DNA of 64,000 bases. Origin: Dehalococcoidia bacterium (GTDB lineage Bacteria > Chloroflexota > Dehalococcoidia > SHYM01). The position numbers and the translations under genes are program-made. Within the stretch, counting starts at the first letter, position 1. Each line of letters opens with the position of its first letter. Location: NCBI GenBank assembly GCA_009692805.1, contig SHYM01000001.1, positions 2,831 through 66,830 on the forward strand. The letters are read 5' to 3'. The notes beneath the pieces were generated by a model. It did not search any database. It was not told where the DNA came from and was given only the letters and a program-made list of their open reading frames with translations. Below, piece by piece: positions 926 through 54,802 of the stretch.

Positions 926-1066
926 CTTTGCACAAAAAAGTCTCGTTCCTTCGAGCTGGCTCTCCCCTGAAGATGCCATCGACCATCCCCCTTACAAAAG
1001 GGAGAGAAAGGGGGCCACCCCCTTACGCCCCCGGCAGATCCCGAGCATCGGGACTCTGCACTCCCT
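926..1066. repeat. MITE-like intergenic repeat, copy A (TTGCAC-AAAAG end module, CCATCGACCATCCCCC box, GGCAGATCCCGAGCATCGGGACTCTGCACTCC hairpin)
   Basis: The same modules recur at 2284, 35222, 39103, 43688 and 48662. It sits in a non-coding gap after the crotonase gene. Confidence 0.7.
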
Positions 1067-1127
1067 CCTTTGCCGGTAAGATGCCCCGTTTGTACAAAGG
1101 AACCGTGACTCAACGATAGGAGGGGTC

Positions 1128-2283: not shown

Positions 2284-2414
2284 ACTTCGCACAACAAGTC
2301 TCATTTTCTTCGAGCTGGCTCTCCCCAGGAAGAGAGTGTAAGGAGAAGGAGAGAATCCCGAGCGTCGGGACTTCGACCCCCGGCAGATCCCGAGCATCGG
2401 GACTCTGCACTCCC
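2284..2414. repeat. MITE-like intergenic repeat, copy B (hairpin module duplicated)
   Basis: TTCGCACAACAAGTCTC...GAGCTGGCTCTCCCC...ATCCCGAGCGTCGGGACT...GGCAGATCCCGAGCATCGGGACTCTGCACTCC. It abuts the 3' end of the ABM monooxygenase gene. Confidence 0.7.
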
Positions 2415-2432
2415 TCTATTGCCGGGGGATTC

Positions 2433-3119: not shown

Positions 3120-4328
3120 ATGCCGGGGCCGCTAGCTGACCTCACGATCCTCGACCTAACGGAATACATCGCCGGTCCCTACGCGACCAAGCTGCTGGCG
3201 GACTACGGCGCCAACGTCATCAAGCTGGAACGGCCGGGCGGCGACCCCTCGCGAGGACTGGGGCCGTTCAAGGGGAACAGCAAGCACGCCGAGCGCAGCG
3301 GCACCTTCTTCTATTTCAATACCAACAAGCGCTCCCTCGTGCTGGACCTGCGCGCGCCTGAGGGCCGGCAAGTCTTCCTGCGGCTGCTGGACGGGGCGGA
3401 TATCGTGGTCGAGAGCTTCCGGCCGGGCGTCCTGGACCGCCTGGGCGTGGGCTGGGACGCTGTCCATGCCCGCAAGCCGTCCGCCCCCCTGGTATCCATC
3501 ACCAACTTCGGGCAGACTGGCCCTTACCGGGAGTTCCGGGCCTCGGAGCTGGTGCTGTTCGGCTTCGCCGGGGAGATGTACTCCATGGGGGGTCAAGACC
3601 GCGCGCCGGTCAAGATGTACGGCACGGCTGCCCAGGTGGAATCGGGCTCCGCCGCGGCGAGCGCCATCCTGGGGGCGGCGATGGTCGGCAAGTGGCAAGG
3701 AGTGGGCCAGCGAGTGGACTTCTCCCTGGCGGAGAGTCACCTATTAGGAGTGGACCGCCGCCACGCCACCGTCATCGGCTATCAGTTCTCCGGTCGCAAG
3801 ACTCAGCGCCGGGCGGGCGCCGGCGTCGCCCTGGGCGGAGTCTACCCCTGCGCCGATGGCTACGTGGAACTGGCAGGCGGCGCCTGGTTCGACCGCGTCA
3901 TAGAGATGCTGGGAAACCCCGCGTGGCTGCGCGACCCCAAGTGGCTGGACCCGGTCGCGCAGACCGACCCCGCCCTGATCGAGGAGTTCGAGGGCCACTT
4001 TTACGAGTGGCTGCTGGCGCGCACCCGTCGAGAAGTCTTGAGGGAGGCGCTGCAGGCGCGGGCGATCTGCGCGCCCATGTTCACCGTGGACGAGCTCTTC
4101 GACGACCCTCACTTCATCGCCCGCGGGCTCTGGGCCCGGGCGGAGCATGCCGAGCTGGGCGCCTTCGCCATCCCTGGCAGGCCCTTCCTCATGAGCGATT
4201 CGCCCTGGGAACTGCGGCGTCCGGCGCCGCTCCTGGGCCAGCATACGGCCGAGGTGCTGCGCGAGGCCGGCTACAGCGAGGGTGAGGTCCAGGCCCTGGC
4301 CCAGCGGCATATAGTGGAGGTGCGGTGA
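3120..4328 (+). CDS. CoA transferase family III (CaiB/BaiF) protein
   Basis: N-terminus LADLTILDLTEYIAGPYATKLLADYGANVIKLERP. Confidence 0.85.
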   Translation: MPGPLADLTILDLTEYIAGPYATKLLADYGANVIKLERPGGDPSRGLGPFKGNSKHAERSGTFFYFNTNKRSLVLDLRAPEGRQVFLRLLDGADIVVESFRPGVLDRLGVGWDAVHARKPSAPLVSITNFGQTGPYREFRASELVLFGFAGEMYSMGGQDRAPVKMYGTAAQVESGSAAASAILGAAMVGKWQGVGQRVDFSLAESHLLGVDRRHATVIGYQFSGRKTQRRAGAGVALGGVYPCADGYVELAGGAWFDRVIEMLGNPAWLRDPKWLDPVAQTDPALIEEFEGHFYEWLLARTRREVLREALQARAICAPMFTVDELFDDPHFIARGLWARAEHAELGAFAIPGRPFLMSDSPWELRRPAPLLGQHTAEVLREAGYSEGEVQALAQRHIVEVR

Positions 4329-35197: not shown

Positions 35198-35221
35198 AGG
35201 GCCATTGTACGGCCCTCGCCA

Positions 35222-35470
35222 GCTTTGCACTGAAAGCGGCGTTCAGAGAGTCTCTGCGCCCTTCAAGAGCCATCGACCATCCCCCTTGTATCTTATCTAG
35301 TGACGGGGCAGACCCAATCCCCCGGTTCCTGGCCTCGCCAGCCTTATACAAGAATGGCATCCTGCCAGAAACGAGGGAGAGCAGAGTCCCGATGCTCGGG
35401 ATCTGCCGGGGGATGGTCGAGGGCATCCTCAGGGAGAGCCAGGCCGAAGAAAGCGAGACTTTCGTGCAAG
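35222..35470. repeat. MITE-like intergenic repeat, copy C (with terminal inverted repeats TTGCAC.GAAAG)
   Basis: Left end CTTTGCACTGAAAGCGGCG; right end CGAGACTTTCGTGCAAGG, its reverse complement. Inside are the CCATCGACCATCCCCC box and the GCAGAGTCCCGATGCTCGGGATCTGCCGGGGG hairpin, inverted relative to copies A and B. Confidence 0.7.
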
Positions 35471-35648
35471 GCCACCCTAGCCCATTACCATCACGGGCGA
35501 TGGGTCTGCGCAGTCGTTGTTGACAAGGTACCCGACGCCGTTATTATTGGTGCGCGGCGCGCGTTGCCCCTATGTTTTTATTCCGAGCTGAGGCCAGCGT
35601 CCCACCGCGGCCCCCGGCAGGCCCTCGTCAGCGAAGGAGATTGCACCT

Positions 35649-39102: not shown

Positions 39103-39286
39103 CTTTTGCACGAAAAGTCAGTCAGTGTAGCGGGAGTGCAGAGGGCAGGCAGCCCTTTGTCGGAGTCATGGGTGTCCCCTCAACATCTTTCCCTCCCCCT
39201 TCGAGCCTTGCTCGAAAAGTCCGGCAAATCTGGCGAATCTCCTAGAGGAGAGTGCAGAGTCCCGATGCTCGGGATCTGCCGGGGGG
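39103..39286. repeat. MITE-like intergenic repeat, copy D
   Basis: TTTTGCACGAAAAGTCAG...GGGAGTGCAGAGGGCAGGC...CTTGCTCGAAAAGTCCGG...GAGAGTGCAGAGTCCCGATGCTCGGGATCTGCCGGGGGG. Confidence 0.65.
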
Positions 39287-39456
39287 ATGATCGTAACCCA
39301 GATCAAAGACTGGGTTGGTGTAGAACCACTTTTGGAGCAAGCCCGTAGACGGGGGATAGGATCGTCCTCCCAGCCACTCCTTTGCCAAGCAGGCGCCGGT
39401 GGGATAAACTAGCGCGAGTCGAAACGGCAGGATCCAAAAGTCGAGAGGAGAATGTC

Positions 39457-39948
39457 ATGCCCAACCCAGTAGTCCGCTTCGAGATCGGGGCCAAGGACGC
39501 CAAGAAGGCGCAGAAGTTCTACGCCGACCTCTTCGGCTGGCACGTGGACGCCAACAACCCCATGAACTACGGCGTGGTGGACACCCACGCCAAGGGAGGC
39601 ATCAACGGCGGTATCACCGCCATCCAGAAAGGCATGCCCGCGCTGATCATCTATGTGGAGGTGGACGACCTGTCCGCCTATCTCAAGAAGGCGGAGAAGT
39701 TGGGCGGCAAGACCCTCATGCCGCCGACGGTGATACCGAACATGGTGACCTTCGCCCTGTTCGCCGATCCCCAGGGCACCACCATCGGCATGATCAAGAG
39801 CGATCACCCGTCCGCTGAGGCGAAGCCGAAAGCTGCGGCGCCGGCGCGCAAGGCTGCTGCAAGCAGCCGGACTACGAAGGCTGCTGCAAGCAGCCGGACT
39901 ACGAAGGCTGCTGCAAGCAGCCGGACTACGAAGGCAGCCAAGCGCTAG
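39457..39948 (+). CDS. VOC (glyoxalase/bleomycin-resistance fold) family protein with C-terminal KAAASSRTT x3 repeat tail
   Basis: VVRFEIGAKDAKKAQKFYADLFGWHVD..., with a GAGGAG RBS 7 nt before the ATG at 39457. Confidence 0.7.
   Translation: MPNPVVRFEIGAKDAKKAQKFYADLFGWHVDANNPMNYGVVDTHAKGGINGGITAIQKGMPALIIYVEVDDLSAYLKKAEKLGGKTLMPPTVIPNMVTFALFADPQGTTIGMIKSDHPSAEAKPKAAAPARKAAASSRTTKAAASSRTTKAAASSRTTKAAKR
39850..39930 (+). repeat. perfect 3 x 27-bp tandem repeat (AAGGCTGCTGCAAGCAGCCGGACTACG) inside VOC gene 3' end
   Basis: Three identical contiguous units encode KAAASSRTT each. Confidence 0.85.
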
Positions 39949-43000: not shown

Positions 43001-43623
43001 TGGAGATCCGGGGCGCTGGCAATTTGCTAGGGCCAGAACAGAGTGGCTACATCAGCGCCGTGGGTTTCGACCTTTACACCCGGCTCCTGGCCGACGCCGT
43101 GGCGCGTCTACAGGACCAGCAGGCTATGGCCCAGGGGCGTCAGCCCCAGGCACGCCCGCGCCCACCCGAGGTGACCGTCGATCTGCCTCTGGCCGCCCAT
43201 CTGCCCCAGGACTACGTGCCCGATGTGAACGTGCGCATGGAGCTCTACCGCCGGCTGGGCGCGATGACAGGCGCGGAAGAGATTACGGGCCTGGAGCAGG
43301 AGCTGCGGGACCGCTTCGGGGCCCTCCCCGAGCCCGCGCGCGCCTTGCTTGACCTGATGCGGCTCAAGCTGCGCGCCGCCCAGGCCGGCGTCGAGAGCAT
43401 CCAGTCTGGAGACCCTTACCTGACCCTCAAGCTGAAGACGACGACGGTGCCGCCGACCCTGGCGCTGGAACGCGCCTTCGGGCCAGCGGTGCAGGTGTTG
43501 CCAGGCAGGGTGCTGGTCGCCGCCCACGACGGCTGGTACCGCCGCCTGCGGCAGGTGCTGGATGCCTTAGCGGGACCAGTGGGAGCGCGCTCTCGCGCCG
43601 ACAAGGTCCCTCAGCGCGGCTAG
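40030..43623 (+). CDS. mfd: transcription-repair coupling factor
   Basis: 1197 aa. UvrB-homology N-terminus, RecG-like SF2 helicase core (DVGYGKTEVA, DEEQRFG, QLRGRVGRG) and a TRG motif. Confidence 0.9.
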   Translation: MGKLQGLLPALSGGPILGALKAALDAAGDHPYRRVAVLEAAKPALVAALAQATGAPVLVVTTTAQRAAQLQEEIEAWAPSSHTVTLYPDPAGIPYERVPSAPGDRWQRLSALRLLAHSEPGPAAPIVLAPTLALMQHVLTPVEFKSAAHAIAVGQRVRLDALLQRWVALGYRNEALVEEPGALSRRGGVVDIWPPQAPLPVRLELNGDRVDSLRQFDPASQRSGASLDTVAIIPAREALFPTDLLDHPEALLSALGLDSIPAEARARLAEEAQAAFSLQRPDLTEIYGAVLNKGGLLDFLPPHSLLVVDELAEVLALAEELEGQARELRLDQQDRGILPPGFPVPYWGYKAVEERLAGHPRRVALERWGQAEALQGAEARDALAGAPAAPPAHRDYFMLPCRGVPAFGGRQAPLAEWARSETRAGGRAVIVSQQAPRLAELLLEEDLFATPVEELSSLPSPGTLTLVHGGLAQGFGLLAAAGAPALSLVGDAEVFGFVKQRRRRPPRTATPRVDLGELAPGAFIVHADHGIARFAGVQTIARDGAEQEYLVLEYAGGDRLFVPADQISRVTGYIGHAGQEPRLHRLGGQEWGRARERAQRAASILAEELLELYASRQLLQGQVCPPDTVWQQELEASFPYTETPDQLQAIEAVKADMESPRPMDRLVCGDVGYGKTEVAVRAAFKALMSGRQVAVLVPTTVLAQQHFQTFSQRFAPFPIHVDVLSRFRSDREQGQVVQGLKEGSVDLVIGTHRLLQKDVAFKDLGLVIIDEEQRFGVGHKERLKQMRREVDVLTLSATPIPRTLHMALAGVRDLSTMETPPEHRLPILTYVAEYDEKLVREAVLRELERGGQVFYLHNRVQTIARTARRLQELVPEARIAIGHGQMHEEALERVMLEFAQGQHDVLVCTTIIESGLDLPNVNTLLVERAEQFGLAQLYQLRGRVGRGPQRAYAYFCFERDRNMTETAQKRLDAIFQATELGAGLKIALKDLEIRGAGNLLGPEQSGYISAVGFDLYTRLLADAVARLQDQQAMAQGRQPQARPRPPEVTVDLPLAAHLPQDYVPDVNVRMELYRRLGAMTGAEEITGLEQELRDRFGALPEPARALLDLMRLKLRAAQAGVESIQSGDPYLTLKLKTTTVPPTLALERAFGPAVQVLPGRVLVAAHDGWYRRLRQVLDALAGPVGARSRADKVPQRG

Positions 43624-43687
43624 CACGTTTGGGGGGAGGCCTGCGAGATGGCAGCCTCATCAGGCGGGGGAACTGGGGGTGTCCCCG

Positions 43688-43850
43688 GCTTTGCACTAAA
43701 ACTCTCGTTTTCTTCGATCTGGCTCTCCTGTGAGGATGTCCACGACCATCCCCCTGGCCCCCTCCCTAGCCAGGAAGGGGGTAGTTTGAAAGGGAGAGAA
43801 GGGGGACACCCCCTTCGACCCCCGGCAGAGGGATTATCCCTCTGCACTCC
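43688..43850. repeat. MITE-like intergenic repeat, copy E (subtype 2 hairpin GGCAGAGGGATTATCCCTCTGCACTCC)
   Basis: GCTTTGCACTAAAACTCTCG...CGACCATCCCCC...CTAGCCAGGAAGGGGGTAG...GGGAGAGAAGGGGGACACCCCCTTCGACCCCCGGCAG.... It fills the gap between convergent mfd and prfB. Confidence 0.7.
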
Positions 43851-43852
43851 CC

Positions 43853-44957
43853 CTACCCCGTCGGGCCCACGGTACTCTTCAAGTAGGCCGTCATGAGGGC
43901 GTCCAGGTCGCCGTCCAGCACCGCCTGCGGGTCGCCGGTCTCATAGCCGGTGCGCAGGTCCTTCACCATCCGGTAAGGATGGAGCACGTAGCTGCGGATC
44001 TGGTTGCCCCAGCCGGATCCCACGTGGGCGCCCTTCAGGCGCAGCCGCTCCGTCTCTCGCCTCTGGATCTCCTGCTCGACGAGGCGGGCGCGCAGGATGC
44101 GCAGCGCCGTCTCCTTGTTCTGCTGGAGGGAGCGCTCGTTCTGGCAAGCGACCACCAGGCCCGAAGGGAGGTGGCGCAGCCGCACCGCGGTGGAGTTTTT
44201 CTGCACGTTCTGGCCCCCGGCGCCACTGGCCCGGAAGGTCTCTATCTCCACGTCGTCGGGCGAGATGACGACCTCCACCTCGGGCCCCGCCTCGGGCCAC
44301 ACCTCCACCAGGGCAAAGGAGGTGTGGCGGGCGTGGGCCGAATCGTAGGGGGACAAACGGACGAGGCGGTGGACCCCCCGCTCGGATTTAAGGTAGCCGT
44401 AGGCGTAGGGGCCCGCGATGGAGGCTACGGCGCTCTTGATGCCGGCCTCCTCGCCCGGGGAGCTCTCGATGACCTCCGCCTGGAATTGGCGGCGCTCCGC
44501 CCAGCGCAGGAACATCCGCAGGAGCATCTGGGCCCAGTCCTGGGCCTCCGTGCCGCCCGCGCCGGCGTGGACGGCCAGGATGGCGCCCCGGTTATCGTAC
44601 TCGCCTCCCAGGGTCAGGCGAAACTCCTGCTCGTCCAGCCGGCGCTCCAGCCGCTCCAGGCTGGTGCCTAGCTCCGCCTCCAGGGAGGAATCGCCCTCGG
44701 CGGCCGTCATCGCCGCCAGCTCGGACAGCTCGGCGGCCTGGCCTTCAAGGGAGCGCCAGAGGTTGACCTCTTCCTTCAGCGCCGCCAGGCGCTTCATGGC
44801 GGCCTGCGCCCGCTCCTGGTCACTCCAGAACTCGGGGTGTCCCGCCTCCGCCTCTAGACGGGTGGCCTCCACATCCTTGGCAGCCAGGTCAAAGACGCTC
44901 CTGGAAATGGGCGATGCGTTGCCGCAGCTCGGTCAGGCGGCCACCCAGATTTTCCAC
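43853..44957 (-). CDS. prfB: peptide chain release factor 2 (requires programmed +1 frameshift)
   Basis: Main ORF 43853-44872 carries the GGQ and SPF motifs. Upstream in the 0 frame, GTG at 44957 opens 22 codons ([22 protein letters not shown]) ending at CTT TGA C (44894-44888), the canonical RF2 shifty stop. Confidence 0.85.
44888..44894 (-). other. RF2 +1 programmed frameshift site CTT TGA C
   Basis: Read on the minus strand as GAG CGT CTT TGA CCT GGC. The downstream frame continues as [11 protein letters not shown]... Confidence 0.8.
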
Positions 44958-45760: not shown

Positions 45761-45835
45761 GGGCGCGCCTCTTCAGCCGAAGATGGCAACCGCCCGGATG
45801 TTTGCAGAGGCTTCAGGGGCCGCGTACACTGCCCA

Positions 45836-47197
45836 ATGGCGTCTAAAAACATCCTCCGCTCCAAAGTCGAGGCACCGCAAGGAGGCGGCCCTACGGACAG
45901 CCCTACGGACAGCCCTACGGACAGCTCAACGGCAGGCTCCCCGCCCCGCGCCCAGCCGCGGCTCTACTACGGCTGGGTCATAGTGGGGGTAATCATCCTG
46001 AGCGGCCTGGCCGCGTCGGTGCAGCTCAACCCCACCATCGGCGTCTTCGTCAAGCCCATATCCGACGAGTTTGGGTGGAGCCGCTCCACCATAGCGGGCG
46101 CGGTGACCGCGGGCACCATTTGCGGGGGCCTGATAGCCATCTTCATCGGTCCCCTGATCGACCGCTTCGGCGGCAAATGGGTGCTGTTCTTCGGGTTCCT
46201 CATCATGGGCGGCGCCCTCATCGCCCTGGGCTTTATCAGCGCTCTCTGGCAGTTCTATCTCATCTTCATCGTCAGCCGGATGCTCCTCCAGGGCGTGATA
46301 AACCTTAGCAATAACGTCATCGTCTCGAAGTGGTTTGTCCGTAAGCGCGGGCGCGCGGTGAGCATTGCCAACGTGGGGCAGCGTCTGGGCAATGGTATCA
46401 CGCCGCTGTACGCCCAGACCTTCATCACTGGCTTTGGGTGGCGGCAGGCGACCATAGCGGTGGGCCTGCTGGCGTGGAGCCTCACCCTGGGCCCCGTGCT
46501 GTTGTGGCTCCGGCGTCAGCCCGAGGACATGGGCCTCCATGCCGACGGGGAGCCGCCCGAGCAGGCGCGGAAGGAGACACCAGGGGGTAGCGTCGCCGCG
46601 CCCCATATCGAGGTCTCATTCACCCTCAAGGAGGCGGTCAGGACCAGGGGCTTTTACCTCCTCTTGGGGGCGATGTCCTTCAGCTTCCTCTCCGGGGCGG
46701 GCATCAACTTCAACATGGTGGCCCTCTTCACCGACCAGGGCCTTAGCCCTTCTCAAGCGGTGCTCATAGTCACCGCCTGGTCGTTGCTGGGCCTGCCAGC
46801 GCTGCTCATTGCCGGGGTCTTGTCCGAAAGGCTGCCGGTGCGCGGCATCCTGGTTGTCGTCTACCTGGGCGTGGTGGCGGGCATCGGGCTGCTGATCGGC
46901 GTCAAAAGCGTCCCCTCAGGGATGGCCTTCGCCCTGGTGCACGGCAGCTTTTTCGGCGCCATGCCGGTGCTGCAAAACCTGATCGTGGCCAACTATTACG
47001 GCCGCACCCACCTGGGCTCCATCCGGGGCGTGGTCACCCCCGTGAGCATGGTGTGCAACGCCGTGGGCCCGCTCATCGCGGCGTCCGCCTACGACTCCAC
47101 GGGGAGCTACACCCGCGTCTTGCTGGCCTTCATGGGGCTCATGTCTCTGGCCGCCCTGGCGATGATGCTGGCAAGTCCACCGAAGCAGCCCCGCTGA
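45836..47197 (+). CDS. MFS transporter
   Basis: 12 predicted hydrophobic segments. An N-terminal PTDSPTDSPTDS repeat is encoded by 3 perfect 12-bp units at 45890-45925. Confidence 0.8.
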   Translation: MASKNILRSKVEAPQGGGPTDSPTDSPTDSSTAGSPPRAQPRLYYGWVIVGVIILSGLAASVQLNPTIGVFVKPISDEFGWSRSTIAGAVTAGTICGGLIAIFIGPLIDRFGGKWVLFFGFLIMGGALIALGFISALWQFYLIFIVSRMLLQGVINLSNNVIVSKWFVRKRGRAVSIANVGQRLGNGITPLYAQTFITGFGWRQATIAVGLLAWSLTLGPVLLWLRRQPEDMGLHADGEPPEQARKETPGGSVAAPHIEVSFTLKEAVRTRGFYLLLGAMSFSFLSGAGINFNMVALFTDQGLSPSQAVLIVTAWSLLGLPALLIAGVLSERLPVRGILVVVYLGVVAGIGLLIGVKSVPSGMAFALVHGSFFGAMPVLQNLIVANYYGRTHLGSIRGVVTPVSMVCNAVGPLIAASAYDSTGSYTRVLLAFMGLMSLAALAMMLASPPKQPR

Positions 47198-47244
47198 CAC
47201 CGCCGCCTGAGCGTGCCGCCCCGCGCGCACCCATTAGAAAACTC

Positions 47245-47323: not shown

Positions 47324-47626
47324 ATGGAGGACCTAGAGTTCGGACTGCTGTTGTTCCGGGTTGACCTGCTGCAAGCGCTGCGCAGCCGCGACCTGGACCG
47401 CCTGCGCGCCTGCCTGGTGCGCCAACACCCCTATGTGCAGTGCGCCCCGGGCCAGTTCCGGCGGCTCCTGAACGACGACCTCTACTTGCAGGCCGCCATA
47501 TACGAGCGCATCGTTGCCGAGCCGCTGCTAGAGGCGCTCCACCCAGAAGCGCAGGCGTGGCTTGAAGTCCACGGCTTTGAGCCCGCACCGGCGTCGCGCT
47601 CCGAGGCCGTAGGCGCTGCTGCCTAA
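47324..47626 (+). CDS. hypothetical small protein (100 aa) downstream of palindromic promoter
   Basis: GGAGGT RBS at 47312-17. ATG at 47324 has a 7-nt spacing; the earlier in-frame ATGs have none. Confidence 0.4.
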   Translation: MEDLEFGLLLFRVDLLQALRSRDLDRLRACLVRQHPYVQCAPGQFRRLLNDDLYLQAAIYERIVAEPLLEALHPEAQAWLEVHGFEPAPASRSEAVGAAA

Positions 47627-47914
47627 ACGGGGCTCATCCTTCGACAGGCTCAGGATGAGCGGGGGCGGGGCACCGCGGGATGAATCCCGCGGCATGGAAG
47701 CAGCGGCGGTAGGCTCAGGATGAGCGGGTATTGAGCGGACGCCTGAGTTCCACCGCTCATGGTGAGCTTGTCGAACCATGAGCCCCACATACAACTTCTT
47801 GGCACGCTCTTTAACGCGGCGAAGACACCGTGCCCGCCGTGATTCCGGACAAAGTCGGGACTCACGGTCACAACTCAGGTAGGCGTACTGCCAGACGAGC
47901 GGGGGCGTTTTCAG

Positions 47915-48667
47915 CTAGAAGCGGATCTCAATGCGGCGGAAGGCCTCCGCCAGAGGCACCCGCAGCGCCTTGCCGTTCTCGGCCAGACGCTCCTTCATCA
48001 TGCGCTCCATCTCCTCCCGCGGCCGGCGGCCGAAGCCCTGGCTTTTGTGCTGCAAAAGACTTTCGATCTTAAACTGGTAGGTCGTGCTCACATCCACGTA
48101 GAAGTTCGGGGTATCGGCACCCCAGAACAGCACCTCCCGCACCTTGTGGACTGACAGCCCTTGCGCCAGGTGCTCGGGGAAGCTGAGGCGGTCGCGGGCG
48201 TAGGGGAAACTGGCGTCGAGGGTCACCTGGCCAGACATGCGGTGGTCCCGGTGCTGCATATAACGGCGGTCGGGGTCGGTGCTGAGGGCGACCTCGGGGC
48301 GGTACTGACGGATCAGGCGCACCAACTCGCCCCGAAACTGGACGTCATCCTCCAGGCCGCCGTCGGGGTGGTCCAGAAAGACCACGTCCTGGATGCCCAG
48401 GACCTTAGCGGCGGCCAGCTGCTCCTCCCGGCGCAGGCCGGCCAGGCGCTCCGAGGTCATCTGGGGGTCCTCGGAACCCTTGTCGCCGTTGGTGCAAACG
48501 GCGAGGACCACCTGGCAGCCGTCGCGGGCCCAGCGGGCCAGGGTGGCTCCCGCCCCCACCTCGGCATCATCGGGGTGGGGGCTCACCGCCAGGGCCACGG
48601 CGGGCGTGGGCCGGCGCTCCTCCTGTCTCTGCTCGTTTTCTCGGTATTGCTGCGGTGAGCTGACCAT
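47915..48667 (-). CDS. PIG-L/LmbE-family N-acetylglucosaminyl deacetylase (MshB/BshB-like)
   Basis: VSPHPDDAEVGAGATLARWARDGCQVVLAVCTNGDKGSEDP. The ATG lies inside the CCATCGACCATC box of repeat copy F. The track ORF extension upstream is repeat-derived. Confidence 0.8.
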   Translation of the reverse strand: MVSSPQQYRENEQRQEERRPTPAVALAVSPHPDDAEVGAGATLARWARDGCQVVLAVCTNGDKGSEDPQMTSERLAGLRREEQLAAAKVLGIQDVVFLDHPDGGLEDDVQFRGELVRLIRQYRPEVALSTDPDRRYMQHRDHRMSGQVTLDASFPYARDRLSFPEHLAQGLSVHKVREVLFWGADTPNFYVDVSTTYQFKIESLLQHKSQGFGRRPREEMERMMKERLAENGKALRVPLAEAFRRIEIRF

Positions 48668-48905
48668 CGACCATCCCCCTGGCCCCCTTCCTAGCCAGGA
48701 AGGGGGTAGTCTGAAAGGGAGAGAAGGGGGACACCCCCTTCGACCCCCGGCAGAGGGACATTCCCTCTGCACTCCGTCCCGCCGCAGGCGGGGCGGCAGG
48801 ATGCCCTTTTAGTGCAAAGCTGGTACACCCCATTCGCCCCCCGGCCCTTCGACCCGCCTGCGGCGGGCTCAGGGCAGGCTCCGGGACCCCTCTGCACTCC
48901 GTCCC
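48662..48905. repeat. MITE-like intergenic repeat, copy F plus an adjacent partial second copy (subtype 2 hairpin; inverted TTTTAGTGCAAAGC end)
   Basis: GACCATCGACCATCCCCC...CTAGCCAGGAAGGGGGTAG...GGGAGAGAAGGGGGACACCCCCTTCGACCCCCGGCAGAGGGACATTCCCTCTGCACTCC...TTTTAGTGCAAAGCTGG, then CCCTTCGACCC...CTCTGCACTCCGTCCC. Confidence 0.7.
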
Positions 48906-48940
48906 AAACCCCTTGTTACGCTGATTTACGACGGCAGATG

Positions 48941-49639
48941 CTAGCGCCTAATCTCTAGGCGCTTGAAGGACTCCGCCAGAGGCACCCGGAGCTTCTTGCC
49001 ATTCTCCTCGCAGCGCTCTCGCACCCACTTGGCTATGGTCTCCTCCGGCCGCTCCCCCATCTGGCTCTTGTGGGCCAGGAGGGACTGTACCTTGGTGGAG
49101 TAGCTCTCCGTCACGTCCACGAAGTGGTCGGGCTCGTCGGAGGCAAACAGCAGCACCTCGCCCACCTTCCAGGGTTTGAGGCCCTGGCGCTCGTGCTCGG
49201 GGTAGATGAGACGGTCGCGGGCGTAGGGGTAAACGGCGTCCAGGGTGACCCGCCCGGCCATCCGGTGGTCCCGATGCCAGATGCCATTGCGATAGGGGCT
49301 GGAGGTGATGACCGTCTCCGGCTGGAACTGGCGGACGCAACGGACGACCTCCCGGCGGAACTCATGGGTATCCTCCAGGCCGCCATCGGGGAAGCCCAGG
49401 CAGACCAGCTCCTTCACCCCCAGGATGCGGCAGGCCTCGCGCTCCTCCGCCTCGCGGATGCGGGCCAGCTCCGGGCTGGTCAGCGTCGGGTCCTCGGAGC
49501 CCTTGTCGCCGTTGGTGCACATCACATAGACGACCTCGGCGCCCTGGGCGGCCCAGCGGGCGACGGTGCCGGAGCACCCGAACTCGGCATCATCGGGGTG
49601 GGCGAAGACCACCAGGACGCGAGCAGGCACCTTCTCCAT
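48941..49639 (-). CDS. PIG-L/LmbE-family deacetylase, tandem paralog
   Basis: VFAHPDDAEFGCSGTVARWAAQGAEVVYVMCTNGDKGSEDP. Confidence 0.8.
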   Translation of the reverse strand: MEKVPARVLVVFAHPDDAEFGCSGTVARWAAQGAEVVYVMCTNGDKGSEDPTLTSPELARIREAEEREACRILGVKELVCLGFPDGGLEDTHEFRREVVRCVRQFQPETVITSSPYRNGIWHRDHRMAGRVTLDAVYPYARDRLIYPEHERQGLKPWKVGEVLLFASDEPDHFVDVTESYSTKVQSLLAHKSQMGERPEETIAKWVRERCEENGKKLRVPLAESFKRLEIRR

Positions 49640-49662: not shown

Positions 49663-50943
49663 TTAAGCGGGACTCATTGGGGTCGAGGACATGGCTCTCG
49701 CCCTGGGGCCGGCCAGCGCCCGGTCATACAGCGCCAGGACATCCTGGGCAACCAGGGGCCAGGTGTAGCGTTCCATGGCGGCGCGGCCGGCGGCGCCTAG
49801 GCCCTGGGCTAAGGCCTCGTTGTCCAGCAAGACCTCCAGCCGTTCCGCGAAGGGCTCCGGGCACTGCCAGGGGATGAGGTAGCCCGTGACCCCGTCTCTA
49901 ACGGTAACCTGGAGGCCCCCCACCCGGGACGCGACCACCGGCGTGCCGCAGGCCATCGCCTCCACCGCCACCATCCCGAAGCTCTCGTAGAAGGAGGGGA
50001 TGACGCAGACGTCGGCGGCGTTGTAGTAGACCGGCAGCCGCTCGTGCTCCACCGCGCCCAGGAAATGGATGCTTTTCTGGATGCCCAGCTCCAGGGCCAG
50101 GGCCTCCAGCCGGCCCTGCTCGCTACCGCCCTCGGCATGGAGCTCATCGTCGGCGTAAGAATCGGCGCCGGCGATGAGGACGTGCAGGCGCGTCCGCTCC
50201 TCCAGGATGGGCAGCGCCCGCAACAGGATATCGATCCCTTTCAGGGGCTCGATGCGCCCCACAAAGAGGATGACCTTCTGGTCGTCCAGGCCCAGGGCAT
50301 GGCGGGCCTTCCGCTTGTCCAGGGGCTGGAACAGGACGGTGTCCACGCCGGCGGGGATGACGGCGATCTTCGCGGGAGACACGCCGTACAGACGCGCCAT
50401 GTACTCGCGGTCAATGGCAGCGAGGGTCAGGACCTGGTCGGCGCCGGCCATTACCTGGGCCTCAGCCCGAATGCGGTCCTGGGACTCCCGGGCGCCACGG
50501 AAGGAGTCGTTCTTGAGCAGGCCCAGGGTGTGAAAGCTGGCCACGTGGGGCACCCCCCAGCGGGCCTGCAGCTCCAGGCCCGCCAGCCCCGAGAGCCAGT
50601 AGTGGCTGTGGATAAGATCGTACTCCAGCCCCTGGGCACAGCTGTAGTCCAGCACCCCGCGCACAAAATTGGGCAAGCCGGCCAGGATCGCCTCCCGCGG
50701 GACCTCGCGCTCCTCGCCCGCGGTGATGTGGATGACGCGGGCCCCGTCGCCCAGGGACACCACCTCGGGGTCGGTGGGATCGTGGCGCCGGGAGTAGATA
50801 TCCACCTCCACCCCAGCCAGCCCCAGCTCGCGATAGAGCTCCCGGATGTAGAGGTTCATGCCGCCCCGGTATTTGCCGCCCAGCTGCACCATCGGGCAAC
50901 CATGGACACTCAGCACCGCGATGCGTAGGCGTCCCTTGCCCAT
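49663..50943 (-). CDS. GT4 retaining glycosyltransferase with MshA-type N-terminus
   Basis: RIAVLSVHGCPMVQLGGKYRGGMNLYI...HSHYWLSG...ESFGMVAVEAMACGTPVV. GAAGGGA RBS. Confidence 0.8.
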   Translation of the reverse strand: MGKGRLRIAVLSVHGCPMVQLGGKYRGGMNLYIRELYRELGLAGVEVDIYSRRHDPTDPEVVSLGDGARVIHITAGEEREVPREAILAGLPNFVRGVLDYSCAQGLEYDLIHSHYWLSGLAGLELQARWGVPHVASFHTLGLLKNDSFRGARESQDRIRAEAQVMAGADQVLTLAAIDREYMARLYGVSPAKIAVIPAGVDTVLFQPLDKRKARHALGLDDQKVILFVGRIEPLKGIDILLRALPILEERTRLHVLIAGADSYADDELHAEGGSEQGRLEALALELGIQKSIHFLGAVEHERLPVYYNAADVCVIPSFYESFGMVAVEAMACGTPVVASRVGGLQVTVRDGVTGYLIPWQCPEPFAERLEVLLDNEALAQGLGAAGRAAMERYTWPLVAQDVLALYDRALAGPRARAMSSTPMSPA

Positions 50944-50962
50944 GAGAAGTCCCTTCTAGCCC

Positions 50963-51940
50963 TCAGCGACGCACGGTACAGCGATAGATCGCGTGGTCGC
51001 GGCCGCCCAGGTCGTACTTGTAGGGCTCGTTGCCGCGCAGAAAATCATAGCGACGCAGCCCGCTCTCAATGGCGTCCCGGATAGTCAGGGCCTTGAGCGC
51101 CAGCCCGACGCTCAGATGGCTGTAAGCGCGGTCAAAGCCCGAGTTATACAGATAGCGGGTGCCCTGAAAGTCGAAGCAGAGGGCGGTGGCCACCGGCCGG
51201 CCCTGATGCTCCAGGAACCACAGCCGCGCCAGGCCCGCCTGCGCCATGGCCTGGACCACCTCGCGGAAGAACCGCGCCCGGGCTGGGGTTATGAACACCG
51301 CCTTGTCCGGCCGGCTCTCCCCCATCAGCGCGAGGAATTCGTCCAGGCGGGTCCCTGTCCCCTGGACATCGGTGACAGCATAGGCGCGGATATCAGCGGC
51401 CTCCAGGAGACGTCGCAGCTTGCGGCGCAGCTCGTGGCGGTCCTTCTTCTTCAGCCCTTCAAGATAGCCCTCCCAGGTGGCGGGCAGCTCCAGCCAGGGC
51501 GACACGGTGTCCAGGGCCACCTCCACCTCCCAGCCCTGCGCTTTGGCCAGGGGCACGAAGTGGGAGAGGGCGAGGGAGTCCTCCCGCACGGGCTCCAGCT
51601 GCAGCGTCTCCCAAGATAGGGATTGGAGCTGAGGCAGCAGGACCGCAAAAAAGGGGCCCTCGCGGCCCCTGACAGCGATGAAATCCAGGTAATCACACAG
51701 GTCGTTGCTGCCGACCAGGGAACATACGCCCGGGCGCAGGGCGAGGGGGGCCAGCCCGATGAGAGCGCCCTTGTCCTCCACCGTCAGGAGCGTCGCCGCG
51801 GCCCCTCCCCCCCACTCGCGCCACCAGGCGCTCTGCCATTGGGGGAGGAGGAAGGGGCTACCCTGGGCTGACTGGGCCAGCAGAAGTTGCCAGGGGCCGG
51901 CTAGCCGGTCTATGGGGGTCTGGGTCGCCGTCTCGGTCAT
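50963..51940 (-). CDS. FemAB/CelD-like GNAT-fold protein (Acetyltransf_6-like)
   Basis: LLPQWQSAWW...DYLDFIAV...FLALMGESRPDKAV... pattern of BioF2/CelD-like GNATs. The ATG is 7 nt after the folE stop, and the RBS sits within the folE 3' end. Confidence 0.6.
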   Translation of the reverse strand: MTETATQTPIDRLAGPWQLLLAQSAQGSPFLLPQWQSAWWREWGGGAAATLLTVEDKGALIGLAPLALRPGVCSLVGSNDLCDYLDFIAVRGREGPFFAVLLPQLQSLSWETLQLEPVREDSLALSHFVPLAKAQGWEVEVALDTVSPWLELPATWEGYLEGLKKKDRHELRRKLRRLLEAADIRAYAVTDVQGTGTRLDEFLALMGESRPDKAVFITPARARFFREVVQAMAQAGLARLWFLEHQGRPVATALCFDFQGTRYLYNSGFDRAYSHLSVGLALKALTIRDAIESGLRRYDFLRGNEPYKYDLGGRDHAIYRCTVRR

Positions 51941-51947
51941 CTGGGGT

Positions 51948-52517
51948 TCACTTCCCCTGCACCAGACTCAGCAGCTCCGCGCGGGTGAGAGGGCTTTCCC
52001 GGAAATCCCCTCGGGTGGCTGCGGTCACCACCCTGGTTCCGGGCTTGCTGACGCCGCGCATGGCCATGCAGAAATGCTCGGCGCTCATCACCACCGCCAC
52101 GCCGGCCGGCCGCAGCCCCTTCATCATGCAATCGGCGATCTGGGAAGTCAAGCGCTCCTGGAGTTGGGGGCGCCGGGCATAGCCATCCACGACGCGCGCT
52201 ATCTTGCTGACCCCCACGATGCGACCACTGGGGATATAACCCACGTGAGCGACGCCTTGGAACGGAAGCAGGTGATGCTCGCACATGGAGTAAAAAGGGA
52301 TGTCGCGCACCATCACCAGCTCTTGGCCGCCCTCTTCAAAGGCGCCCTGGAGCTGCGTCGCCGGGTCCTCGCCGAGGCCCTGAAAGAGCTCGGCGTACAT
52401 GTCGGCGATGCGCTGGGGCGTGGCCTGCAGGCCCTGGCGCTCCGCGTCCTCGCCGATGGCCTCCAGGATCTGCCGGACAGCCCGGCGCAGCTTCTCGTTA
52501 TCGAACTCGGATGTCAC
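51948..52517 (-). CDS. folE: GTP cyclohydrolase I
   Basis: ...[39 protein letters not shown] preceded by a GGAGGGGG RBS gives a 189-aa protein. The track ORF's N-terminal extension is low-complexity. Confidence 0.85.
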
Positions 52518-52555
52518 TTGACCCCCTCCGGGCCGTACCAGGCACGCGCCCCGGT

Positions 52556-53629
52556 TCACTCCCCGGCCAATACCCGCTCGATGGCCGCCAGGTCCGCGTG
52601 CAGCTCCCGCAGCTGGCCGGCGCCCTTGAGGGCGGTGTCGGGGTCCTTCAGGCCCGATCCGGTGATGACGCACACCACCCGCTTGCCCTTCACTTGCAGA
52701 CCTTCCTGAACGAGCTTGATGAGGCCGGCGACGCCTGCCGCCGAGGCCGGCTCGCCGAAGACACCCTCCTGGCGGGCCAGCCGACGATAAGCCTCCAAGA
52801 TTTGGGCATCGCTGACCATATCTATGGCGCCGCCGGACTCATCCCGGGCAGCCGTGGCACCCTTCCAGCTCGCGGGATTGCCGATGCGGATGGCGGTGGC
52901 GACCGTCTCGGGCTCGGCGATGGGATGGCCGCGCACGATGGGGGCGGCGCCCTCGGCCTGGAAGCCCATCATCTTGGGCAGGCGCTGGGCGTAGCCCTGG
53001 TCGCGGTACTCCTTGAAACCCTTCCAATAGGCGGTGATGTTGCCGGCGTTGCCCACGGGTATGAACAGATAGTCCGGCGCCTCGCCCAGGGCATCCACGG
53101 TCTCGAAGGCGGCTGTCTTCTGGCCCTCGATGCGGTGGGGGTTCAGCGAGTTCACCAGGGTAATCTGGTGGCGTTGGGAGAGCTGGAGCACCATCGCCAG
53201 GGCCGCATCGAAGTTGCCCTGGACAACCAGCACGTCGGCCCCATACGCCAGGGCTTGCGCCAGCTTCCCCAGGGCGATATTGCCCTTGGGGACCAGGACG
53301 TAGGTACGCAGGCCGCTGCGCGCGCCGTAGGCGGCGGCCGAGGCGCTGGTGTTGCCCGTGGAGGCGCAGATCAGGGCCTGGCTGCCGGCCTCCAGGGCCT
53401 TGGCCACCGCCACCACCATCCCCCTGTCCTTGAACGAGCCAGTGGGGTTACAGCCTTCCAGTTTGAAGTAGAGCTCGCCTACCCCCAGCTGCCGTTCCAG
53501 CGTTTGGGAGCGGACCAGGGGGGTGGAGCCTTCGCCCAGGGAGAGCAGGGGCGTCGCCTCGGTGATGGGGAGGTGCTCCCGATAGCGGGCCAACACACCT
53601 GGATTTGCCTGTCTTTCCACGTCGCTCAT
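52556..53629 (-). CDS. thrC: threonine synthase
   Basis: PLP-lysine region [17 protein letters not shown], plus [11 protein letters not shown]. Confidence 0.85.
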
Positions 53630-53683
53630 TATAACAGGCGCACCCTGGCCCCAGGTTGGCTTACGAGGCCGCTGTAGCCTGGC

Positions 53684-54739
53684 TCAAGGTGGCGCCATCA
53701 GAGGGTAGCGGTCGGCCCCGTTGGGCAGCACAGGATAGGGCGTGTCGCCGATCCCGTCGCCGTTGGCGTCCCTGCCGGCGTAGTCGCTCCAATAGTTTCC
53801 ATTGCTGCCGTCGTCCCAGCGGTTGTCGCGGCCGCTGTCGGAGGCGTTGCGGCCGTTGTTGGTGAAGCTGTTGCCGACGATGCGGTTCCCCTCGGACTCG
53901 GTGATCTCAATACCAGGACCGCCGTTCTTGGTGATGCGGTTGGCCCGGAGCGAATTACAGTTAGCGCCCTCGGTGAGGCTGACGCCGCCAGAGACCAGGT
54001 TGCTGAAGATGACGTTGTGCTGGGCAGCTGAAACGCTGATCCCGTCGGATCTGAACGAGGCAGTTCCCGTTACATCGGTGCCGACGTAGTTATGGGCCAC
54101 GAAGTTGAAGTCCGCGCCTGCGGTCACCCGAACTCCCCGTGGAACGGCCACGACGTTCCCTTCCTCTTTGGTGCTCCCTCCCACAAAATTGTGCTTCCCC
54201 TCTATAGTTACAGCCCCCGGCCCAAGTGCCCGAACACCGGCGGCATCAGTGCCGAGGAAATTACCGCTAACCACGTTTTCTGTCGCCCAGAAGTTAATGG
54301 ACGCATCCCCATTTATGACGTTCCTCTCCTTCGCCGTTGTTCCGCCTATTCTGTTGAATGGCTGATTTGTATACACCCCTGCACTGCCTAGGGCTACCGT
54401 CCCGCTGGCGTCCAGGCCGATGAAGTTGCCCACCACTTGGTTGTAGGAGATCCCCTCGTCGAAGATGAGGATCCCCGCACTCCTGCGCCCGACGATGACA
54501 TTGCCCTCTACTCGGTTACTGGGGGAGCCCCCCTCAATGGCCACCGTCCAGTAACCGGTGTTGGAGAGATTGATCTTGCCTGAGGCATCGGTGCCGATGT
54601 AGTTGCCCAGGATGACGTTGCTAGACTCAGCGCCAAATCCCAATGCAACGTGGACCTCTGTAAAGCGATTTCCGGCAATTACGTTTCGGTCGCTAGGAAC
54701 AGGCCCTCCCAAGATGTTGTTACCGGAGCGGATCATCAC
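53684..54739 (-). CDS. right-handed parallel beta-helix repeat protein (NosD/pectin-lyase-fold-like), no signal peptide
   Basis: Repeating GN..G/NV..GN..G motifs throughout. Confidence 0.6.
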   Translation of the reverse strand: MMIRSGNNILGGPVPSDRNVIAGNRFTEVHVALGFGAESSNVILGNYIGTDASGKINLSNTGYWTVAIEGGSPSNRVEGNVIVGRRSAGILIFDEGISYNQVVGNFIGLDASGTVALGSAGVYTNQPFNRIGGTTAKERNVINGDASINFWATENVVSGNFLGTDAAGVRALGPGAVTIEGKHNFVGGSTKEEGNVVAVPRGVRVTAGADFNFVAHNYVGTDVTGTASFRSDGISVSAAQHNVIFSNLVSGGVSLTEGANCNSLRANRITKNGGPGIEITESEGNRIVGNSFTNNGRNASDSGRDNRWDDGSNGNYWSDYAGRDANGDGIGDTPYPVLPNGADRYPLMAPP

Positions 54740-54802
54740 GCTCCCAACTTGGTCTCGGATAAACGCAACGCTAAGTACAGCCCCAATCTTAGCAGAGCGC
54801 TC

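Follow-up and report, generated by a model that had tools for sequence, protein, structure and literature searches.

The 64-kb window analysed here (64,000 nt of high-GC DNA from a Chloroflexota metagenome contig) carries two co-directional, paralogous genes for PIG-L/LmbE deacetylases, PIG-L1 and, downstream of it, PIG-L2, and the 273 nt that separate them consist of modules of a repeat, here called copy F, that recurs elsewhere in the window. A sequence-only reading of the locus had proposed that this element was domesticated, providing the start codon of PIG-L2 and perhaps a regulatory or processing site at the RNA level. In our assessment, the locus is best explained, with high probability, by a recent, lineage-specific insertion of a non-coding, modular, hairpin-rich repeat resembling a transposable element of the miniature inverted-repeat type (MITE), next to an ATG that existed before it and with no domestication involved. 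The element contributes the ribosome-binding region and a long, GC-rich, multi-hairpin spacer, not the start codon.

Relatives without the repeat share the PIG-L2 start codon

Four independent assemblies that represent one close relative (L001 to L004: NCBI GCA_900218215.1, Logan ERR2108714, JGI 3300027819 and Logan SRR6197865) are syntenic with the window at 92–94% nucleotide identity. The sequence-only reading had recommended a synteny comparison with relatives lacking the insertion, and all four assemblies show an empty site, in which PIG-L1 ends in ...AGGCGCTAG, a 19-nt spacer (GGGCGCCGCGAGGATAGCG) follows, and ATGGTCAGCTCACCGCAGCAG comes next. PIG-L2 of this relative (protein P0001, the closest ortholog, 97% identical) begins with the same ATGGTCAGCTCACCGCAGCA / ATGGTCAGC... 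19 nt past the upstream stop. In the more distant L006 ortholog (70% amino acid identity), stop and start overlap as TAGTG, and the L005 ortholog (79% identical, on a 919-nt contig) has a different repeat module upstream of the same ATGGTCAGCTCACC. The N-terminal extension of PIG-L2 occurs in just three database proteins (P0001 to P0003), all starting with (M/V)VSSPQQYRE, and across the relatives codons 2–10 (VSSPQQYRE) show at least 6 synonymous and 0 non-synonymous differences; the in-frame GTG codons further downstream (V24, V28) are GTC or GCC in relatives. A metagenome scan with a pattern from the 5' coding sequence yielded no relatives of the junction beyond the known contig.

Because this N-terminus is conserved and the downstream GTGs are not, we place the start of translation at 48667, inside the box that opens the repeat unit (the ATG at 48667–48665 is the reverse complement of the CAT in CCATCGACCATCCCCC, 48664–48679), exactly where the sequence-only reading had put it; a start downstream of 48667 was looked for and is contradicted by the conserved N-terminus. 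The further claim that the element supplies this codon, or was domesticated to do so, is not supported: the same start is present in the four element-free assemblies, and L006 has TAGTG. Since element-free relatives carry the start codon and the N-terminus, and codons 2–10 differ only synonymously, both are, on this comparison, native and older than the insertion.

The insertion itself appears to be young. Copy F differs from copy E, its closest paralog, at ~5% of positions, and the synonymous divergence (dS) between the window and L001 is 0.17–0.24; because the F/E divergence lies below the between-strain dS, the comparison suggests that F was inserted recently, after the strains split, and is strain-specific. 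The converse, namely that the element-bearing state is ancestral and the relatives deleted the element, is quite improbable. It could draw on the L001 spacer, which has CGATGG in common with the box and matches ~13/20 positions of the element's last 20 nt, and on L005, where a repeat module likewise precedes the ATG; yet 13/20 is the chance level for a BLAST extension through GC-rich sequence, the L005 repeat is a different module, the outgroup L006 lacks any spacer, and the F–E identity of 95% is closer than neutral strain divergence. As the source is a metagenome and the repeat is present in multiple copies, a repeat-induced chimera in the contig might also be suspected, an explanation made extremely unlikely by two further contigs of the same ENA sample (ERZ1305449, where the same genes are found), whose public gene calls repeat both the 250-aa product and the 273-nt spacing. 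Both flanks, moreover, are the correct syntenic neighbours, and a chimera would not insert between adjacent genes leaving both intact.

We separately considered whether the N-terminal extension of PIG-L2 (MVSSPQQYRENEQ...) is an exapted 5' arm of the repeat (CGAGAAAACGAG, similar by eye) and rejected this candidate: in 15 local-alignment tests, comparing the native sequences of L001, L005 and L006 with five arms, the similarity was no better than in shuffles, with the lone exception of L001 against copy E (p = 0.0085), resting on a 13-nt match.

A modular repeat family in the window

Copy F belongs to a family with at least seven copies of 65–210 nt in the window that have their ends in common (Table 1). 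Full copies open with (CCAG)CTTTGCAC.AAAAG and close with its inverse, forming terminal inverted repeats (TIRs) of the CTTTGCAC/GTGCAAAG type; the ends in the window take the form CCAGCTTTGCAC(T)AAAAG, and the terminal motif CTTTGCACNAAA has 6 matches where 0.22 are expected. Between the arms, the modules follow the order box, the 10-bp hairpin H1, linker, hairpin H2, CCCCCGG, hairpin H3, CACTCC and, in some cases, one more palindrome (H4). Whole modules set copies A, B, C and E/F apart from one another between shared arms, as in mosaic elements of the BOX and BIME type: C lacks H1 and H2, A has only H2, and in B another hairpin replaces both, while the H3 stem is CAGATCCCGA..TCGGGACTCTG in copies A to D and CAGAGGGA..TCCCTCTG in E and F. 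TIRs are found at both ends in full copies (A and C, as well as a copy in L003 described below), and the 5' end of E matches the 3' end of F. Small and present in many copies, as MITEs are, the repeats contain only spurious open reading frames (ORFs) that they themselves create. All kinds of intergenic setting harbour them, in either orientation. Copy E ends exactly at the prfB stop codon (43853) and copy B at the stop of the gene at 2433–2786, the genes being convergent in these cases; repeats in this genome fill intergenic space up to gene boundaries, as F does at a start codon.

In agreement with the sequence-only reading, a repeat copy lies between the two paralogous deacetylase genes, where it fills 48668–48940, and the hairpin and the partial second copy at 48841–48905 are both there. 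Copy F has no 5' arm; its one ~110-nt unit (box, H1, H2, H3) is accompanied by a 3' arm and by F2, a partial unit duplicated locally. Positions 48668–48775 are 95% identical to copy E at 43743–43850 over 108 nt. The 17-mer CCATCGACCATCCCCCT from the F box recurs exactly at 976–992 and 35270–35286, and TCGACCATCCCCC, which also opens the homologous unit in other Chloroflexota metagenome-assembled genomes (MAGs), occurs 13 times in the window with at most 2 mismatches against 3.7 expected (0/100 shuffles reached 13). In the 3' arm, CTTTGCACTAAA (minus strand, 48808–48819) exactly matches copy E's 5' end (43689–43700). F2 has in common with the first copy CCCTTCGACCC and an exact 18-mer (48888–48905 = 48763–48780), and the H4 palindrome recurs flipped at 48853–48867.

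The repeat also misleads annotation. The sequence-only reading had judged a protein similarity between the ORF at 43620–43847 and the GTG-extended form of PIG-L2 (47915–48772) to be false, and rightly so in the sense that the similarity is real and its source is common repeat DNA: the 75-aa ORF and the 285-aa extended ORF are alike over their first ~35 residues through the shared repeat. In this genome, repeat copies that abut or overlap gene ends generate false N-terminal extensions, as in the 285-aa ORF from the GTG at 48772, and false protein similarities, as at 43620–43847; it is the empty-site comparison that reveals the true start at 48667.

Relatives of the repeat in other genomes

Scanning one genome per species with the pattern CCCCCGGCAGA-N6-22-CTCTGCWCTC, we found at least 110 matching loci; among the matches listed, most are in Dehalococcoidia/Chloroflexota MAGs, often several per genome, and Siccirubricoccus, Bilophila and Clostridia MAGs account for a few. 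The inner part of H3 forms a stem of at least 7 bp in 87/124 instances, compared with 14/124 after shuffling of that inner part, and the 124 instances hold 97 distinct H3 hairpin sequences. H2 precedes H3 in 113 of them, with covarying outer pairs (TGGGG/CCCCA, CGGGG/CCCCG, AGGGG/CCCCT); these instances, being selected by pattern, show that the hairpins are maintained and not the full range of the family. The ~110-nt unit from box to CACTCC is collinear and roughly 80–93% identical in 14 copies from several MAGs, none of which (0/14) has CAT beside the box. Units are arranged in tandem in L078 and L102, and in L103 the H1 loop harbours a nested module.

In Dehalococcoidia, the two-hairpin cargo also lies within elements of 122–213 nt bounded by GAGACCTTTGCGTAAC inverted repeats, at no fewer than nine loci besides L073. 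At L073 (3669–4872), a 1.2-kb insertion sequence (IS) bounded by GAGACCTTTGCGTAAC / GTTATGCAAAGGTCTC encodes a 338-aa, IS5-family-like transposase (DDE_Tnp_1, 107 bits; DUF772, 93 bits). The ends in the window (CTTTGCACTAA) resemble those of the Dehalococcoidia elements (CTTTGCGTAAC), with ~9/11 TIR positions matching.

Beyond Chloroflexota, the core CCCCCGGCAGAG..CTCTGCACTC after a GGGGCTCCGCCCC-type hairpin occurs at L018, L047, L085, L115 and L116 (Siccirubricoccus phaeus and similar, with several copies), at L083 (Bilophila wadsworthia) and at L021 and L066 (Clostridia MAGs). These cores may reflect common descent, transfer, or convergence of GC-rich hairpin repeats.

Resemblance to known repeats

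The family belongs to a known kind of element rather than to a new one, even if no description of this Chloroflexota repeat was found in the literature searched, which is weak evidence of novelty. Its closest counterparts in architecture are streptococcal: the pneumococcal BOX elements (Streptococcus pneumoniae; boxA-boxB(n)-boxC) and, related to these, modular repeats in S. suis (PMC3049150). Both the present family and these counterparts are composite non-coding repeats of less than 300 nt, with conserved terminal modules bearing inverted repeats and variable internal hairpins, and in both the copies are often clustered or nested, give rise to spurious ORFs and can contain start codons. BOX copies are co-transcribed with neighbouring genes (PMC3049150), whereas here co-transcription is something we infer; there is no sequence relationship, the phylum is another, and the internal modules here are GC-rich hairpins of 5–10 bp joined by conserved single-stranded linkers (CCCCCGG, CACTCC).

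As to origin, the repeat probably resembles IS-derived MITEs of the IS5 type. The TIRs of full copies are built on CTTTGC(A/G)(C/T)..AA, the 16-nt ends of the Dehalococcoidia elements match the 1.2-kb IS with its DDE_Tnp_1 + DUF772 transposase, and copies are present or absent between close strains; on the other hand, copy F is one-ended, and the link from the window to the IS rests on the ~9/11 TIR positions. The REP sequences and BIMEs of Enterobacteria and Pseudomonas, palindromes proposed to stabilise or punctuate mRNA (PMC3733652), are likewise short, GC-rich, extragenic palindromes in intergenic mosaics, also between genes of one operon, but the repeats described here have IS-type terminal inverted repeats. 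Because the GTAG/CGTC tag that defines REPs (PMC3733652) is absent beside the conserved hairpins, H2 and H3 being flanked by CCCCCGG, CACTCC or TTCGA, they are not REPs in the strict sense; GTAG follows H1 in copies E and F only, and in 0/12 homologous units of other genomes. Correia elements (Neisseria) and ERIC sequences (Enterobacteria) are MITEs that are transcribed with genes, form hairpins that are substrates of RNase III/E, and can bring promoters or alter expression (PMC10969869). Like them, the present repeats are inserted beside or between genes; unlike them, they are modular in build instead of forming one long palindrome, and no promoter-like sequence was found in the insert.

Rfam has no family for the repeat. 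The sole non-tRNA match, to the Clostridiales-2 motif (RF02937; 48733–48784, minus strand), scores 28.6 bits against a gathering score of 58.6, and we rejected identity with this RNA family. On the gene strand, GGAGUGCAGAGGG..CCCUCUGCCG and GUCGAAGGG match conserved stretches of the model, so that the match rests on two short linear motifs, GUGCAG.GGG..CCC.CUGCCG and GUCGAAGGG, but the 33-nt middle part of the model is missing here. No other repeat copy, including those in Clostridia MAGs, matches at E <= 0.01, and the match is not discussed in the motif's paper or in the supplements consulted.

Junction and route of insertion

The window is homologous to L001 to L004 as far as 48669 and to repeat copies A and G from 48664 onward (blastn-short), leaving a 6-nt overlap of native and repeat sequence, CCATCG (CGATGG on the gene strand), that contains the ATG. 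Such an overlap is the signature either of a microhomology join or of an insertion after which a microhomology deletion took away the 5' arm together with the native spacer. On its other side the insert starts directly after the TAG of PIG-L1, and the native 19 nt leave no trace. The recognisable end of the element is the 3' one (48806–48823); the opposite side stops at the box.

We envisage that the repeat landed in a very short junction of two co-directional PIG-L genes, one that would ancestrally have been translationally coupled, and that its box end fused to the native gene at the microhomology CGATGG, which contained the existing ATG. As the sequences show, neither the native spacer nor its GAGGA Shine–Dalgarno (SD) sequence is left; the element's AGGGGG stands 7 nt before the ATG, and the cistrons are 273 nt apart.

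Further differences between the strains show an active turnover of these repeats. L001 to L004 lack F, which the window has; conversely, L003 (4605–4711; also L002) has a complete 107-nt, TIR-bounded copy that is absent at ~45790–45800 of the window. The ends of this copy (4605–4617/4699–4711) form 13-nt inverted repeats, 92% matching (GGCCTTGCGCAAA/TTTGTGCAAGGCC), and the flanks of this copy, set against the window's empty site, can be read as a duplication CATCC/CACCC (5 nt, 1 mismatch), with shorter readings possible too. The strain pair differs by additional repeat-filled indels, at 47625–47869 of the window and 1807–2079 of L001.

The first of these blocks, situated between convergent genes just past the PIG-L2 stop, has ~245 nt where L001 (10799–10824) has 26. 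It is made of other hairpin and repeat modules (CGCTCATCCTGAGCCTGTCGAAGGATGAGCC, CCGCGGGATTCATCCCGCGG, CTCATGGTTCGACAAGCTCACCATGAGCGG), and its 'GGTTCGACAGGCTCACCACGAAC' module also occurs inside TIR-bounded elements of other Dehalococcoidia. Separately, L002 has a 647-nt, lower-GC segment (3679–4326, against 47189–47241 of the window, which lacks it) with a 159-aa ORF that has no Pfam match; we considered it as an autonomous element and rejected it, the gene being low in GC and no inverted repeats being found.

Translation and RNA structure across the junction

The 12 nt upstream of the PIG-L2 ATG are element-derived, the native GAGGA-N5-ATG having been exchanged for the element's GGGGGATGGTCG-ATG. 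With a generic 16S rRNA 3' tail, the SD duplex is predicted at -15.8 kcal/mol in the window and -5.9 kcal/mol in L001. The spacer is strongly structured as predicted, with a minimum free energy (MFE) of -159.6 kcal/mol (z = -3.0), and would form several stable hairpins; the PIG-L2 SD and AUG are mostly paired in the predicted ensemble (unpaired probability 0.04–0.3). Because no promoter-like or terminator-like match lies inside the 273-nt insert, it is presumably co-transcribed with the operon. Initiation at PIG-L2 would now rely on the element's SD and not on proximity to the terminating ribosome, such that coupling by proximity would have been replaced by independent, SD-driven and possibly structure-limited initiation, an event that may have been neutral or mildly consequential.

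That the element was co-opted for the start codon, together with an RNA structure serving in regulation or processing of the bicistronic mRNA, is, in our view, improbable. The position of the ATG inside the box, the 12 upstream nucleotides with their strong SD mimic, the high predicted structure of the spacer RNA, and the effects of comparable repeats (Correia, ERIC, BOX) on co-transcribed genes (PMC10969869, PMC3049150) would all suit such a role. Yet five relatives have the same ATG and N-terminus without the element, the insertion occurs in a single lineage and appears young, CAT is not found beside the box in any of the 14 homologous units of other genomes, and the same CCAT box in copies A and G fronts no gene. 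The family shows no orientation bias with respect to genes (15 sense, 22 antisense, 27 convergent and 16 divergent, as counted with a crude gene caller based on third-position GC content at pattern-selected loci), and a helix by which the PIG-L1 stop region pairs with the PIG-L2 SD/AUG in the MFE structure, examined as a candidate for long-range coupling, was rejected as ordinary: at -20.1 kcal/mol it does not exceed what chance would give (p = 0.15 against shuffles), and an equally good fold is found for 53% of real 29-nt windows. No computation on promoters, terminators, orientation bias or this closing helix favoured a regulatory or processing site.

The box in reverse (GGGGGAUGGUC; minus strand, 48664–48680) is complementary to the generic 16S tail GAUCACCUCC, allowing for G-U pairs and one mismatch. 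The same box is also found at 976–991, 35270–35285 and 35408–35420; copies A and G have an ATG after it at the spacing seen in F, yet no gene follows.

A more speculative proposal, which we hold to be unlikely, is that the reversed box end mimics an extended SD and that the insertion was kept as a portable 'uncoupling cassette' that resets the PIG-L1:PIG-L2 ratio, the core possibly being a module recognised by some factor. If this were true, a coupled pair would have become two independently initiated cistrons, with a strong element-borne SD gated by the element's own hairpins. The covarying core H2-CCCCCGG-H3-CACTCC, which is present at more than 100 Chloroflexota loci and has look-alikes in Alphaproteobacteria, Desulfovibrionia and Clostridia, could then be recognised by an undescribed host or transposon factor.

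Loss of translational coupling, together with the mostly paired SD and AUG, could also indicate that the insertion is polar or disruptive and that PIG-L2 is becoming a pseudogene or is silenced, which we regard as very unlikely. The ORF is intact and keeps all invariant PIG-L residues, the SD mimic is strong and at ideal spacing, and the ratio of non-synonymous to synonymous substitution (dN/dS) relative to L001 is 0.062 for PIG-L2, like the 0.055 for PIG-L1. On these sequence comparisons, PIG-L2 is shown to be intact and under purifying selection equal to that on PIG-L1, with the dN/dS figure spanning the whole time since the strains split and not just the time after the insertion.

Several points weigh against a recent, MITE-like insertion with the consequences outlined above. 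Copy F has one recognisable terminus, no clear target-site duplication can be recognised around it, and its route may have been transposition followed by deletion or, alternatively, recombination or template switching with an E-like copy as the source. Neither the 64-kb window nor L001 to L006 contain a homolog of the L073 transposase. The N-terminal extension is represented by only three ortholog lineages in the databases searched, and with a different repeat upstream in L005, the polarity of the change rests mainly on L001 to L004 and L006. The 16S tail behind the SD energies is a generic bacterial one, assumed rather than the organism's own, and it is a prediction that the insert is co-transcribed, that the new SD is used, or that the level of PIG-L2 is affected.

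The locus amounts to a dated natural experiment, in which nearly identical strains differ by a 19-nt coupled junction and a 273-nt, hairpin-rich junction with a swapped SD. This allele pair, which together with the lessons for annotation gives the locus its main value, allows the effects of a repeat on operon expression to be measured in Chloroflexota, a phylum with almost no genetics. The repeat family itself, with its modular units, IS5-type ends and a covarying-hairpin core widespread in Dehalococcoidia, deserves a census.

Deacetylase genes, mapped features and other observations

The PIG-L1 and PIG-L2 proteins are paralogs with 53% identity, and both belong to the PIG-L family, exceeding the PF02585 gathering score of 28.2 (Table 1). 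The metal-binding and catalytic residues (AHPDD, HxDH) are present, with H31, P32, D33, D34, H139, D141, H142 and others invariant in the alignment. Neither protein reaches the cut-off of the BshB1 equivalog TIGR04001 (101.7 and 120.5 bits against 182.5) or of the MshB equivalog TIGR03445 (51.7 and 54.2 bits against 224.35). Among named proteins, the nearest come from Chloroflexota/Dehalococcoidia MAGs.

Table 1. Repeat copies, modules of copy F and genes at the junction (coordinates of the 64-kb window)
Feature	Position	Strand	Remarks
Copy A	926–1099	+	full length, ends CTTTGCACAAAA ... TTTGTACAAAG
Copy B	2285–2432	+	3' arm cut off at a gene's stop codon
Copy G	35220–35285	+	5' arm and box only; head to head with copy C
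Copy C	35338–35474	-	head to head with copy G (35220–35474)
Copy D	39205–39342	-	variant, ends GCTTGCTCCAAAAGT ... ACTTTTCGAGCAAGGC
Copy E	43686–43853	+	closest paralog of F; with 5' arm, without 3' arm; abuts prfB stop codon
Copy F	48664–48823	+	plus partial copy F2
Native/repeat homology overlap CCATCG (CGATGG on gene strand)	48664–48669		6 nt, contains ATG
Box CCATCGACCATCCCCC, 5' end of repeat unit	48664–48679	+	exact copies 976–991, 35270–35285
Shine–Dalgarno-like AGGGGG	48675–48680	-	element-derived, 7 nt upstream of ATG; replaces native GAGGA
Hairpin H1 CCCCCTTCCT-AGCC-AGGAAGGGGG	48683–48706		10 bp, 100% complementary; kept in 14 units
Hairpin H2 GGGGG-ACA-CCCCC	48726–48738		hairpin here in 113/124 core instances
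Core CCCCCGG, H3, CACTCC	48744–48775		>110 loci
Hairpin H3 CAGAGGGA-CAT-TCCCTCTG	48751–48769		stem within core
Hairpin H4 CCCGCC-GCA-GGCGGG	48778–48792		inverted-repeat match 18 nt, 94% complementary
3' arm with terminal inverted repeat CAGGATGCC-CTTTTAGTGCAAAGCTGG	48797–48823	+	matches copy E 5' end
Partial second copy F2	48841–48905	+	CCCTTCGACCC, different hairpin/'TTCGAC..GCTCAGGGCAGGC' module, then CTCTGCACTCCGTCCC
Tail beside PIG-L1 stop	48906–48940		no clear repeat match; no similarity to native 19-nt spacer
Intercistronic gap, PIG-L1 TAG to PIG-L2 ATG	48668–48940		273 nt
PIG-L2 (PIG-L/LmbE deacetylase paralog 2)	47915–48667	-	250 aa; ATG 48667–48665; PF02585 112.8 bits
PIG-L1 (PIG-L/LmbE deacetylase paralog 1)	48941–49639	-	232 aa; stop TAG 48943–48941; PF02585 124.5 bits
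MshA-like GT4 glycosyltransferase	49663–50943	-	same minus-strand gene row
GNAT/FemAB-like acetyltransferase	50963–51940	-	same minus-strand gene row

The operon neighbours at 49663–53700 on the minus strand comprise, with the two PIG-L genes, the MshA-like GT4 glycosyltransferase, the GNAT/FemAB-like acetyltransferase, a GTP cyclohydrolase I and a PALP enzyme, a context that resembles a low-molecular-weight-thiol or amino-sugar pathway, with no member at an equivalog cut-off. A segment of ~1.1 kb at 53670–54802 is absent from the relative (L001 5282–5292) and appears in public gene calls as a 350-aa NosD/beta-helix protein between a methyltransferase and the PALP gene. Elsewhere in the window, three tandem 27-nt repeats (AAGGCTGCTGCAAGCAGCCGGACTACG) at 39850–39938, in the 3' end of the ORF at 39382–39948, encode AAASSRTTK repeats.

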